Source of the DNA: Escherichia coli
GTDB taxonomy: Bacteria; Pseudomonadota; Gammaproteobacteria; Enterobacterales; Enterobacteriaceae
Strand: one strand, 5' to 3'
Length of the DNA: 64,000 nt
NCBI RefSeq assembly: GCF_016026235.1
Contig: NZ_CP065613.1
Shown here one piece after another: positions 36,001-53,977 of this stretch (positions are counted from its first letter, which is position 1; the number at the start of each line of letters is the position of its first letter). A program made the position numbers.

Positions 36001-39000
36001 TCAGGTCTGAGTTCATGGGACGTTTATTGGGTCTGGACTCCACACCGCGGGAGAGCTGGCTCAGCGCAATCAACGGAAAACCACCGGATTTTGCCAGGCC
36101 TTTAAGCCCCTTTGAGATTTCACCCACGGCAAGGTCATGACGCCCCGTGGTTCGGGTTTTTATCAGCCCGAGATAATCAACCACCACCAGCGCCGTTTCC
36201 GGATGTTTAATCAGATGGTGTTTCGTTGTTGCGCATATCTCATCAATGGTCAGGTTCGCCTGGTCCACCATCCAGATATTGCGCCCGGTCATCCGCCCCA
36301 CCCCTTGTGAGAAACGCGCCCAGTCTTCATCTTCAAAGTGAGCCACAGATTTCAGGCGTGATACTGGCATCCCTCCAGCCGCAGACACCATACGTTCACC
36401 AATCTGGATGTTCGCCATCTCCATGGTGAACAGAAGCACACCATGCCCCTGCTCAGTCACCTTGTCGATGATGTCCAGCGCAAGTTCGGTTTTCCCCATC
36501 GAAGGACGAGCCGCAATAAATACCAGGTCGCCGGGCTCCATGCCGCCTGTTTTTGCGTCCAGTTCATCAATACCGGTCATCAACGTCCTGGATTTCTCCA
36601 GTCCCTGATTCCGGCATTCAACACGCTCAACCACCTCCGGAAGCACATCATCAATATGTACCGACTGAATAACGCCCTTTTCCGTCGACAATGAGGCCAT
36701 CATGTTCTGTGCATCCTTAAGAGCATCTTCAGCTGCTTCACAGGTATGCGCATTGAGGTAGCCTGAGTTTAACGGACACTCCTTCCTGAAATAGAATGGC
36801 ATCAGAAGGAGCTAATAATGAGCAGAAAAAACCAACGTTACTCTAAAGAGTTCAAAGCCGAAGCTGTCAGAACGGTTCTTGAAAATCAACTTTCGATCAG
36901 TGAAGGCGCTTCCCGATTATCCCTTCCTGAAGGCACTTTAGGACAATGGGTTACCGCCGCCAGAAAAGGGCTCGGTACTCCTGGTTCCCGCACGGTGGCT
37001 GAACTGGAATCTGAAATTCTGCAACTGCGTAAGGCGTTAAATGAAGCTCGCCTTGAGCGAGATATATTAAAAAAAGCAACAGCGTATTTTGCACAGGAGT
37101 CGCTGAAAAATACGCGTTAATCGAACAATGGCGACAACAATTTCCCATTGAAGCGATGTGTCAGGTATTTGGTGTATCCAGGAGCGGTTATTACAACTGG
37201 GTACAGCATGAACCCTCAGACAGAAAACAAAGTGATGAGCGGCTAAAACTGGAGATTAAGGTGGCACATATCCGCACTCGCGAAACATATGGAACCCGGC
37301 GGCTCCAGACGGAGCTGGCAGAGAATGGCATCATCGTTGGTCGTGACCGACTGGCACGTCTTCGTAAGGAGCTAAGGCTACGCTGTAAGCAGAAACGCAA
37401 GTTCAGAGCGACTACGAACCCGAACCACAATCTGCCAGTTGCGCCAAATCTGCTGAACCAGACGTTCGCTCCTACAGCACCAAATCAGGTCTGGGTGGCG
37501 GACCTGACGTATGTTGCCACACAGGAGGGATGGTTGTACCTCGCTGGCATCAAAGATGTTTATACGTGCGAAATTGTCGGCTACGCCATGGGAGAGCGCA
37601 TGACAAAAGAGCTGACAGGTAAAGCCCTGTTTATGGCGCTCAGGAGCCAGCGCCCACCTGCCGGGCTAATCCACCACTCTGATCGAGGTTCACAGTACTG
37701 CGCATACGATTACCGGGTCATACAGGAGCAGTCTGGTCTGAAAACATCAATGTCGCGTAAAGGTAACTGTTACGACAACGCTCCGATGGAAAGCTTCTGG
37801 GGAACGCTGAAAAATGAGAGCCTGAGCCACTATCGTTTTAATAACCGGGATGAAGCCATCTCAGTAATACGGGAATACATTGAGATTTTCTACAATCGTC
37901 AGCGTCGTCACTCTCGTCTGGGGAATATCTCCCCGGCAGCCTTCAGGGAAAAATATCATCAGATGGCTGCTTAAAAAAAGAACAAATGGTAGTGTCCGCT
38001 ATTGCCAGTACACCTCACATCGCGTAATTTCTGTAATGCCTCGTTCAGTGTTTTTTCTGCATCGCGCAGTGCGGCATTGCGCCGCAACGCTGCAACATAG
38101 TGCTCCAGTGAAGACTTCACCCAGGTTTTACGCCCGGTATCAGTAATCACCGGGGCAAGTTCTGGCATCTCATTGCACAACAGCACAGGATCAATCACGC
38201 CGGACACACGGGCCTGTCTGCAGATGCCTGTGTAGATATCCCGGTACGGTCGTACAGAAAAAACGTCCGCCGGTAGTGTGGCCAGAATATCCATCACTTC
38301 AGGATCTGCTCCGCGCAGAAAGAACGCGCCGATGACAGCGCCTTCAAGGTCATCGTTACGCCATACTGGAGTTGTCATGCAGCCACACCTCTGATACGAG
38401 AACGGTAACTGGGCCAGTTAAACGACAACCAGTTGCGTCCCCCGTCTGTGATCCTGTCGGCAATTCGGGGACTGATGAACGCCCACAACTCTTCCGGTGA
38501 GAGGTTACTGATCAGAATGGTGGGCAAGATACTTTCGTACCTGGCGTTGATAATTTCCTGCAAAATAGCCATTTCAGCCGCGCTGCCAAACTGAACGCCA
38601 ACTTCGTCGATGATCAGCAAATCCATTGACGCATAACGCTCAATAACTTCATCCGCTGTTTTTTCGCTGTCATTCCGCCAGCAATTTTTCACAGCACGGG
38701 TAAGGCGCATCACGTCGGTGATCTCCACACTGGCCAGATAGTTACGGATGATGTGTTTTGCCATAGCCACAGCCAGATGATTTTTTCCGGTACCACAACT
38801 GCCGGTCATAACAAGACTGGTACCGTTCTCCAGCATATCTGGCCAGTTCTCCGCATAGCGGCGACAGGCCGCAAGATTTCTGGCTGCGTCAGGATTAACC
38901 TCCAGATAATTATCAAACTCGCAGTCCCGAAAACGCAGGGCAATTCCGGCGTTATCAGTCAGCTCTTCCGCCTTGATGGACGACAGCTCCATGGTCAAAT

Positions 39001-51000: not shown

Positions 51001-53977
51001 CAATTACTATCAGGCGCAATTATACGAAACTCGGTGAGTTCACTCTACCTAAAACTGAAGCAAGTACAAACAGGGTTGTGCATCTTATCCAGCCCGCTAT
51101 CAGTGTCCTGAAAAATCAGGCTGAAATGACAAGACTGGGTAAGCAGCACAACATCAAGGTTCAACTACGTGAATATGGACGTTCAGTAAATCATGAATGT
51201 ACTTTCGTATTTAACCCCCAGGTGGTTAGAAAAAGCAAACAGGTAGGTTTTATCTACAAGGTAGATTCCATTGGCGACTCATGGGAAACAGCCATTAAAC
51301 GTGCAGGCATCAGGCATCGAAAGGCATACCAGTCACGACACACTTATGCGTGCTGGTCATTATCTGCCGGAGCAAATCCAAGCTTCATTGCCAGCCAGAT
51401 GGGGCATGCAAGTGAGGTAGCCTGAGTTTAACGGACACTCCTTCCTGAAATAGAATGGCATCAGAAGGAGCTAATAATGAGCAGAAAAACCCAACGTTAC
51501 TCTAAAGAGTTCAAAGCCGAAGCTGTCAGAACGGTTCTTGAAAATCAACTTTCGATCAGTGAAGGCGCTTCCCGATTATCCCTTCCTGAAGGCACTTTAG
51601 GACAATGGGTTACCGCCGCCAGAAAAGGGCTCGGTACTCCTGGCTCCCGCACGGTGGCTGAACTGGAATCTGAAATTCTGCAACTGCGTAAGGCGTTAAA
51701 TGAAGCTCGCCTTGAGCGAGATATATTAAAAAAAGCAACAGCGTATTTTGCACAGGAGTCGCTGAAAAATACGCGTTAATCGAACAATGGCGACAACAAT
51801 TTCCCATTGAAGCGATGTGTCAGGTATTTGGTGTATCCAGGAGCGGTTATTACAACTGGGTACAGCATGAACCCTCAGACAGAAAACAAAGTGATGAGCG
51901 GCTAAAACTGGAGATTAAGGTGGCACATATCCGCACTCGCGAAACATATGGAACCCGGCGGCTCCAGACGGAGCTGGCAGAGAATGGCATCATCGTTGGT
52001 CGTGACCGACTGGCACGTCTTCGTAAGGAGCTAAGGCTACGCTGTAAGCAGAAACGCAAGTTCAGAGCGACTACGAACCCGAACCACAATCTGCCAGTTG
52101 CGCCAAATCTGCTGAACCAGACGTTCGCTCCTACAGCACCAAATCAGGTCTGGGTGGCGGACCTGACGTATGTTGCCACACAGGAGGGATGGTTGTACCT
52201 CGCTGGCATCAAAGATGTTTATACGTGCGAAATTGTCGGCTACGCCATGGGAGAGCGCATGACAAAAGAGCTGACAGGTAAAGCCCTGTTTATGGCGCTC
52301 AGGAGCCAGCGCCCACCTGCCGGGCTAATCCACCACTCTGATCGAGGTTCACAGTACTGCGCATACGATTACCGGGTCATACAGGAGCAGTTTGGTCTGA
52401 AAACATCAATGTCGCGTAAAGGTAACTGTTACGACAACGCTCCGATGGAAAGCTTCTGGGGAACGCTGAAAAATGAGAGCCTGAGCCACTATCGTTTTAA
52501 TAACCGGGATGAAGCCATCTCAGTAATACGGGAATACATTGAGATTTTCTACAATCGTCAGCGTCGTCACTCTCGTCTGGGGAATATCTCCCCGGCAGCC
52601 TTCAGGGAAAAATATCATCAGATGGCTGCTTAAAAAAAGAACAAATGGTAGTGTCCGCTATTGCCAGTACACCTCAAAGTGCCCAGATGGTGTTCAATGT
52701 ATACGGAGCATGGATGACTGACAGCAATGCAGAACAGATCGCAATGCTGAATCAGAAGCTGGCAGATTATGTCCCAATGATGTCCCATGGTCACCAAAGT
52801 GACACAAGAGGCTTATTAAAATCAGTGAGTTAGCTTTTAATACCCGTCATGTTAACTGCGTGGAGGGCAACACCACGCTTTACGCCCTGCCGAAACCCGA
52901 GGTTGTCCTGCGCTGGCGTGAACAGACCACAGATGACTTCCGCTTCTGTTTTAAGTTTCCGGCGACCATTTCGCATCAGGCAGCATTACGACATTGCGAT
53001 GATTTAGTGACTGAATTTTTGACCCGCATGTCACCGTTGGCTCCGCGCATTGGGCAATACTGGCTGCAACTGCCTGCCACATTCGGCCCACGGGAGCTGC
53101 CTGCGCTTTGGCATTTTCTCGATTCTCTCCCTGGCGAATTTAATTATGGTGTGGAAGTCCGCCATCCACAGTTTTTCGCCAAAGGGGAAGAGGAACAAAC
53201 GCTTAATCGCGGTTTACATCAGCGCGGCGTTAATCGGGTGATTTTAGACAGCCGCCCGGTTCATGCAGCACGTCCACACAGTGAAGCTATTCGCGACGCT
53301 CAACGAAAAAAACCTAAAGTTCCGGTACATGCTGTACTGACGGCGACAAATCCGCTGATCCGTTTTATCGGTAGTGATGATATGACGCAAAACCGGGAAT
53401 TATTTCAGGTCTGGTTACAGAAATTAGCGCAGTGGCATCAGACCACTACGCCTTATCTTTTTTTACATACGCCAGACATTGCCCAGGCACCGGAACTGGT
53501 ACATACCCTGTGGGAAGACTTACGTAAAACGCTTCCAGAGATCGGAGCAGTTCCGGCTATTCCACAGCAATCTTCTCTTTTCTGAATTTGCCACCTATCA
53601 TAGACAGGTGCCATCGGCCATTTTAAAGGGAGTTTGTATGGTAAGCGCGCTGTATGCCGTTTTAAGTGCGTTGTTATTAATGAAGTTCTCTTTTGATGTC
53701 GTTCGCCTGCGAATGCAGTACCGCGTTGCCTATGGTGACGGTGGTTTTAGCGAACTGCAAAGCGCTATTCGCATTCATGGTAACGCGGTGGAATATATTC
53801 CTATCGCGATTGTGCTGATGCTGTTTATGGAAATGAATGGCGCAGAAACTTGGATGGTGCATATTTGCGGCATCGTTTTGCTTGCTGGTCGTCTGATGCA
53901 TTATTACGGTTTTCATCACCGTCTGTTTCGCTGGCGACGTTCCGGCATGAGCGCCACCTGGTGTGCGCTGTTGCTGA

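Follow-up and report, generated by a model that had tools for sequence, protein, structure and literature searches.

Three IS600 copies, probably from separate transpositions, in a phiP27-like ipaHd prophage integrated in yecE of Escherichia coli

A stretch of 64,000 nucleotides from Escherichia coli (contig NZ_CP065613.1 of assembly GCF_016026235.1; hereafter the window, numbered from its first letter) contains three copies of the insertion sequence (IS) IS600, all within one lambdoid prophage. Did these copies enter one by one, as a unit, or by spreading from a single founder, and what became of the prophage that received them? IS600 is a member of the IS3 family that was first described in Shigella sonnei and is expanded in every Shigella species and in certain enteroinvasive E. 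coli (EIEC) lineages; the expansion and continuing activity of the element have been described in Shigella, and its expansion in EIEC of ST270 and ST99 (PMC7373316). A first-pass annotation of the window had proposed that three independent insertions hit a helicase gene, an SPFH gene, and an integrase gene, and that the copies had not recombined with one another afterward. From the analysis described here, we conclude, with a probability of roughly 0.9, that three separate IS600 transpositions, those of copies 1 and 2 first and that of copy 3 later, crippled an otherwise complete-looking phiP27-like prophage that carries ipaHd and is integrated in yecE.

IS600 copies and the genes they interrupt

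Copy 1 is located at 36754-38017, copy 2 at 47821-49084, and copy 3 at 51413-52676. All three lie on the plus strand, and the length of each is exactly 1264 bp, so the coordinates and orientation given by the first-pass annotation were reproduced to the base. The intervals of about 10 kb and 2.3 kb noted there measured 9803 bp between copies 1 and 2 and 2328 bp between copies 2 and 3. The copies are, as had been noticed, only a few single-nucleotide polymorphisms (SNPs) apart: they differ pairwise at two, three, and three positions, and four IS positions are variable overall (78, 169, 232, and 980). Each copy has private states, namely, 78A in copy 1, 169T in copy 2, and 232C together with 980T in copy 3. 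A perfect 3-bp target duplication brackets every copy, with CAT at 36751-36753 and 38018-38020 for copy 1, GTG at 47818-47820 and 49085-49087 for copy 2, and AAG at 51410-51412 and 52677-52679 for copy 3. Identity between the copies ends at the IS termini, beyond which just zero or one extra base is shared, by chance; the three triplets read earlier as duplications are exact.

All of the sequence features that define IS600 were found, because the length, identity, ends, open reading frames (ORFs), slippery run, and duplications fit this element. The sequence of copy 1 has 100% identity to that of an element on plasmid pINV of EIEC strain CFSAN029787 that bears the annotation "IS3-like element IS600 family transposase", and other annotated IS600 elements in EIEC genomes show 99.8 to 99.9% identity. 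The termini, TGAGGT...ACCTCA, form imperfect inverted repeats with TG...CA ends, in which the first six bases are perfectly complementary and more matches follow through approximately 27 bp. Pfam searches showed that all three copies have an intact orfA (100 amino acid residues, HTH_Tnp_1) and orfB (rve/rve_2/rve_3); in copy 1, orfA is located at 36818-37120, and orfB ends at 37974. An A7G slippery run is present at IS positions 316-323 of all three copies, with orfB in the -1 frame, which is the sequence arrangement of a programmed -1 frameshift that would join orfA and orfB. The fused OrfAB, reconstructed by hand from the coordinates, is 385 residues long and equals the 385-residue product called in the sister loci L010-L012. 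Members of the IS3 family transpose by a copy-out/paste-in route via a circular intermediate, driven by the OrfAB protein that -1 frameshifting produces. From this knowledge of the family, the three copies would have arisen by three separate copy-out/paste-in transpositions carried out by OrfAB. No transposase other than that of IS600 was seen in the window in the Pfam-annotated gene calls or in the synteny with annotated relatives.

Each IS was removed in silico together with one target duplication, and uninterrupted ORFs of 463, 276, and 437 residues were restored, in which Pfam detected DnaB/DnaB_C, Band_7 (SPFH), and Arm-DNA-bind_2 plus Phage_integrase, respectively. The gene for the DnaB-type replicative helicase (35720-38378, minus strand; 463 codons) is divided by copy 1, which follows codon 120 and is antisense to the gene. 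The break separates the two domains of the helicase, with the DnaB N-terminal domain (residues 9-86) on one side and the DnaB_C ATPase domain (residues 177-422) on the other, and intact orthologues of this helicase are 98.3% identical. The gene for the tyrosine integrase (50253-52833, plus strand) is interrupted by copy 3 after codon 387 of 437. Its product contains Arm-DNA-bind_2 (residues 7-70) and Phage_integrase (residues 202-395), and the truncated form, of 390 residues encoded at 50253-51425, lacks the ...AQMVFNVYGAW segment. The catalytic tyrosine, assigned by the known motif order of the family, is most likely Tyr395 and would thus be within the lost segment. The SPFH/Band_7 lipoprotein gene (47019-49116, plus strand) is interrupted by copy 2 after codon 267 of 276, and the consequence appears much milder. 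The truncated ORF (47019-47828) retains the whole of Band_7 (residues 23-209), and two IS-encoded residues take the place of the last nine, so this insertion may not inactivate the gene, and the protein perhaps still works. All three genes are therefore interrupted as first annotated, with the reservation that the break in the SPFH gene falls outside its domain. The excisionase gene xis (49961-50197, plus strand), located between copies 2 and 3, is intact, and its sequence is 98.7% identical to that of the annotated excisionase of EIEC strain RMDEC332.

Independent assemblies and the order of insertion

Repeated elements are a possible source of misassembly, and the three copies could in principle have been misplaced, duplicated, or collapsed, in which case neither their positions nor their duplications would be real. 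The window does contain errors of another kind, with three 1-nt homopolymer deletions relative to the assembly UGFA01000005.1 (hereafter the NCTC assembly) and five relative to a 99%-identical prophage; these deletions, in C, T, or A runs, are at 16818, 20060, 23559, 24197, 29038-29043, 29249, and 29309. However, the NCTC assembly, which was compared with window positions 27974-61425, shows zero substitutions and three 1-nt homopolymer indels, all of them outside the IS region, and reproduces all three copies, their private SNPs, and their flanks base for base. In addition, the left and right junctions of copies 1 and 2 and the left junction of copy 3 (L1, R1, L2, R2, and L3) are crossed by short-read contigs of at least six other assemblies and by three Logan runs, and five of the six junctions were confirmed in two or more independent assemblies. 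The restoration of each ORF exactly upon removal of the IS also argues against an artefact. We consider it extremely improbable that assembly produced these copies, in agreement with the first-pass annotation, which had named assembly collapse or duplication as an observation that would overturn it.

The homopolymer deletions bear on a different candidate. Five apparent frameshifts were detected by tblastn in the genes for the tape measure protein, gpG, the capsid-protease fusion (two frameshifts), and a DUF1441 protein, and we considered them as extra pseudogenes. Each of the five is the loss of 1 nt from a run of C or T relative to the 99%-identical prophage, and the one that the NCTC assembly covers is intact there; this candidate was rejected, and the deletions are probably systematic sequencing errors, as was shown for one frameshift and inferred for four. 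If the frameshifts are sequencing errors, the prophage is structurally complete-looking apart from its IS copies.

The host of the window was placed by its relatives. Contigs that carry the helicase::IS600 and SPFH::IS600 junctions include JTCO01, which is EIEC O143:H26 strain 4608-58 of phylogroup E (PMC4319576). The complete genome of FDAARGOS_943 has a chromosome 100% identical to the window at 1-7000 and 52677-64000, bar one extra IS600. From the junctions of 4608-58 and the flanks of FDAARGOS_943, the window therefore comes from an EIEC lineage. The extra IS600 of FDAARGOS_943 is inserted at approximately 63378-63382 (L021 3826-4982) in the yecT-yecV spacer and is not present in the window. 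Because it stands amid flanks with zero to two SNPs, IS600 has transposed in each of the two lineages after their divergence.

The distribution of the three copies among assemblies gave their order. GCA_014155105.1 (L010) and GCA_031665325.1 (L011) have copies 1 and 2 together with an intact 437-residue integrase. Across the site of copy 3, GCA_014155105.1 shows no mismatch to our reconstruction over 2328 bp and contains a single AAG, which corroborates the 3-bp duplication. Because a natural empty site identical to the reconstruction occurs in assemblies that already have copies 1 and 2, copy 3 was inserted later and is still polymorphic. It was found in the NCTC, NJNA, LSGI, LSGJ, and LSGK assemblies and in the three Logan runs. 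Strain 4608-58 and the three long-read assemblies (NCTC, GCA_014155105.1, and GCA_031665325.1) each have both copy 1 and copy 2. Among the other drafts, LSGL has copy 1, and LSGI, LSGJ, and LSGK have copy 2; contigs of the draft assemblies end at the IS, which makes a missing second copy uninformative there. The junctions of copy 1 were detected in UGFA01, JTCO01, and LSGL01, and its right junction also in GCA_014155105.1 and GCA_031665325.1, and a junction of copy 2 was detected in seven assemblies, including 4608-58. None of the three left junctions was found in any of the 5426 complete RefSeq E. coli genomes, so the insertions are young and lineage-restricted.

More distant relatives lack the interruptions. 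The most closely related yecE prophages are those of EIEC strains RMDEC332, VL46, CFSAN029787, and RMDEC364, and in RMDEC332, which was examined in detail, the helicase, SPFH, and integrase genes are all intact. The RMDEC332 prophage has a single IS600 (L001 25759-27022) at a place equivalent to window 46833-46835, which lies approximately 1 kb upstream of where copy 2 is inserted. The presence of copies 1 and 2 in the sister assemblies, the absence of copy 3 from two of them, and the intact genes of RMDEC332 agree with the independence of the insertions proposed by the first-pass annotation, as do the duplication belonging to each copy, the restored ORFs, and the natural empty site of copy 3. 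These results indicate that the insertions differ in age, copies 1 and 2, which a larger number of strains have in common, being first and copy 3 the youngest.

A side observation was made in GCA_031665325.1, in which gene order breaks at position ~14960 (window 53245, in the yecE/DUF72 remnant) into an element of the IS21 family followed by tail genes of another prophage. This break indicates an IS-associated chromosomal rearrangement.

Recombination between copies and their donors

Every copy in the window keeps its own matching flanks, and there has therefore been no exchange between copies in this molecule, as the first-pass annotation had claimed. This test has discriminating power, since mismatched flanks do occur in FDAARGOS_943. 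In the yecE prophage of that strain (NZ_CP065615.1, 738000-768000), an IS600 flanked by CAT and GCG, without a target duplication, joins xis (window ~50006) to the replication genes (window ~39707), and the region corresponding to window ~39.7-50.0 kb, with the immunity and early-left genes, is missing. One IS600 in prophage B of the same strain is flanked by GTA and TGA. The FDAARGOS_943 yecE prophage also has an intact integrase that is ~5% divergent, and IS2 and ISEc60::IS600 are found in its replication genes. Because it is a mosaic relative of the window prophage, its loss of the early region is parallel and not derived from the three copies described here.

The first-pass annotation had also pointed out that the direct repeats could delete the whole early-left region. 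Such a loss has indeed occurred in FDAARGOS_943, but it took place at a different IS600, and the molecule in the window shows no deletion. No deletion derivative between the three copies was seen in the long assemblies NCTC, GCA_014155105.1, and GCA_031665325.1, and short-read assemblies cannot reveal inter-IS deletions. The prediction is plausible, and RecA-dependent deletion still has its substrates in the three direct repeats.

IS copies in direct orientation that bracket a segment can also be the ends of a composite transposon, and copies 2 and 3 with the 2.3 kb between them, or copies 1 and 2 with 9.8 kb, might have arrived as a unit. A unit of this type has one duplication at its outer ends and none inside, whereas in the window the flanks at the outer ends differ (GTG and AAG for copies 2 and 3; CAT and GTG for copies 1 and 2), and a separate duplication surrounds every IS. 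Syntenic phage sequence makes up the bracketed DNA, and strains with copy 2 and without copy 3 exist. Joint arrival is therefore scarcely credible.

Whether the second and third copies descended from the first within the prophage is a finer question. Local hopping from one founder IS600 to nearby DNA would fit the presence of three copies in one orientation within 16 kb. At the density of FDAARGOS_943, in which IS600 occupies 30 chromosomal places in 5.27 Mb, the Poisson probability of three copies in the 47.9-kb prophage is P = 0.003 and that of three in 16 kb is P = 1e-4. The copies also resemble one another (two to three differences) more than they resemble the IS600 copies that FDAARGOS_943 has in this region (seven to nine differences). 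However, 169T is already present in copy 2 of the strains that lack copy 3, and copy 3 has 169C. Since 169T predates copy 3, copy 2 was not its template, and copy 3 has two further private states. Of these, 980T also circulates in other strains, being present in the IS600 of RMDEC332, and the exact sequence of copy 1 is found unchanged on pINV of CFSAN029787. The shared orientation of all three copies is not significant (P = 0.25). Clustering is also a feature of the sister strain, as 5 of the 30 IS600 copies of FDAARGOS_943 lie in its two ipaH prophages (P = 2e-4). Because these sister prophages are IS600-dense too, we attribute the clustering to a general tendency of IS insertions to survive in prophage DNA that is dispensable, and not to anything special about this locus. 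We consider local hopping quite unlikely; the simplest reading of the sequence variants is that of three imports from different IS600 variants resident in the genome or on pINV.

Two other candidates for the history of these sites were examined and rejected. First, the integrase gene is ~5% divergent from the FDAARGOS_943/RMDEC332 allele upstream of copy 3 and identical to it downstream, which suggested a mosaic breakpoint made by recombination through copy 3. The density of mismatches already drops toward the 3' end, the last mismatch is 35 bp before the copy 3 site, and GCA_014155105.1, which has no copy 3, shows the same mosaic without an IS. Second, a target preference for sequences similar to the inverted repeats has been reported for some IS3-family members, and the right flank of copy 2 (49085-49097, GTGCCAATACACC) agrees in 11 of 13 positions with the right end of the IS (TTGCCAGTACACC). 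Scores of 8 to 9 of 13 were obtained for the other two sites, and 11 of 13 is reached by 3% of random sites, which is not significant when three sites are tested. The target duplication of the single IS600 in the RMDEC332 prophage is CAT, the same triplet as at copy 1, a number of sites too small to judge preference.

The prophage, its expected fate, and known systems

The prophage that received the three copies (4986-52862) was delimited by its att core, synteny, and phiP27 homology. The 11-bp core TTAACTGCGTG is found at 4986-4996 and 52852-52862. The 5' end of yecE begins at 4901 and the DUF72 remainder of this gene is located at 52815-53585, with the int stop codon at 52833; the element is thus integrated in yecE with a duplicated core and a tyrosine integrase adjoining attR. 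It is ~47.9 kb in size, or ~44 kb without the IS copies, and its chromosomal neighbors are ruvC-aspS-yecD on the left and yecN-cmoAB-torZY-argS on the right. The match to phiP27 has 93.2% identity over 41% of window 33000-57000 and consists of the early and integration modules. From left to right, the prophage contains dinI and the type III secretion system effector gene ipaHd (6108-7859), a lambda-like tail module, a ClpP-capsid fusion-type head module, genes for lysis, an antiterminator of the Q type, RusA, the helicase, a DnaC-like loader, an immunity region with an intact LexA-family repressor, and then the SPFH gene, xis, and int. ipaHd is intact, as is the repressor, and the gene order is syntenic with the annotated yecE prophages of EIEC strains RMDEC332 and FDAARGOS_943.

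The prophage is also a mosaic. Its left end (dinI and ipaHd) is 100% identical to the FDAARGOS_943 yecE prophage, while the head module and the helicase match a second ipaH (ipaHe) prophage of FDAARGOS_943 at ~99% (window 7000-29760 was compared), and the two FDAARGOS_943 prophages have identical tail-gene products. This pattern suggests that resident lambdoid prophages have exchanged DNA or undergone gene conversion with one another. A small hypothetical gene at 46382-46770, which encodes 130 residues in RMDEC332, is split over two frames both here and in the NCTC assembly and may represent a real frameshift or local divergence.

With the helicase split between its two domains, replication of the phage DNA would be lost, and in strains with copy 3, an integrase without its catalytic tyrosine would be unable to support excision. 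The prophage, and with it ipaHd, would be locked in the chromosome because of these losses of replication and, in copy 3 strains, of excision. As copy 1 lies in the early-right operon in antisense orientation, it may also have a polar effect on the RusA and Q genes downstream.

Several points weigh against the reading of three separate, crippling transpositions. Copy 2 is excluded as the donor of copy 3 only if neither back-mutation nor gene conversion took place, and position 78 of copy 1 is unreadable in the strains without copy 3, whose loci start at IS position ~266. Junction R3, at the right end of copy 3, is crossed by one independent assembly, NCTC. The description of the prophage as otherwise complete-looking assumes sequencing errors at all five frameshifts. 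Finally, the loss of helicase and integrase function is predicted from domain architecture, and host DnaB might in principle replace the phage helicase.

Two of the three hits are in genes for replication or excision, which raises the possibility of selected domestication, in which the helicase and integrase insertions were favored because they prevented lethal induction and the loss of ipaHd. The independent loss of ~39.7-50.0 kb at an IS600 junction in FDAARGOS_943 and the intact state of the repressor and ipaHd would be in keeping with such selection. By contrast, three events cannot separate selection from chance, and the helicase and integrase genes make up ~2.7 kb of the ~44-kb phage genome. 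Copy 3 has not reached fixation, the remaining hit, in the SPFH gene, does little damage, and prophages undergo the same IS decay throughout the genomes of Shigella and EIEC (PMC7373316). We regard selection on these insertions as possible, although on the doubtful side. A broader form, in which invasive E. coli lineages repeatedly ground their ipaH prophages by IS600 and thereby spare the bacterium SOS-induction death or ipaHd loss in host cells, is speculative and rather improbable. If it were true, FDAARGOS_943, which independently lost its early region at an IS600 boundary, would have arrived convergently at this outcome by another route.

The expansion of IS600, the insertion of IS elements into prophage genes, and inter-IS deletions are already documented for Shigella and EIEC, and what we describe is an ordinary decay route of resident prophages in Shigella-like bacteria, with no new element, mechanism, or principle. 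The locus offers a clean and datable case of the stepwise grounding of a prophage with a virulence gene, in an EIEC lineage that is halfway along a Shigella-like course of IS expansion. The integrase insertion, being polymorphic, can readily serve as a strain marker, and the three direct repeats are a natural test bed for rates of IS-mediated deletion.

Compared with known IS600, the element itself is no different, having the same length, 99.8 to 100% identity, and the same ORFs, A7G site, ends, and 3-bp duplications; only the three insertion sites are peculiar to a small EIEC sub-lineage. phiP27, an Stx2e phage that is also found in yecE, shares the integration site and the 93% identical replication, immunity, and integration modules, including a homologous helicase and integrase. 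The window prophage differs from phiP27 in having ipaHd in place of stx, a different head module, and the three IS600 copies. Amplification and deletion have been reported for IS600 pairs around stx. The defective Stx prophage of Shigella dysenteriae type 1, with IS600 beside stx, is like the window prophage lambdoid and IS-riddled, carries a virulence gene, and occurs in a Shigella/EIEC background (PMC7819885). However, it is a strongly reduced remnant conserved across strains (PMC7819885), whereas the window phage is near full length and its hits are recent and partly polymorphic. IS-mediated deletions on the Shigella virulence plasmid pINV follow the same principle, with repeated IS copies as the substrates that remove the DNA between them (PMC5629016), and IS600 is found around the tra region of the pINV of EIEC O96:H19 (PMC7283534). 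The window differs from the pINV deletions in that such recombination has not taken place in it, and the nearest case at this locus is the FDAARGOS_943 junction. Beside these systems, the value of the locus is local: the insertions that ground this ipaH prophage form an ordered series and are polymorphic in part.

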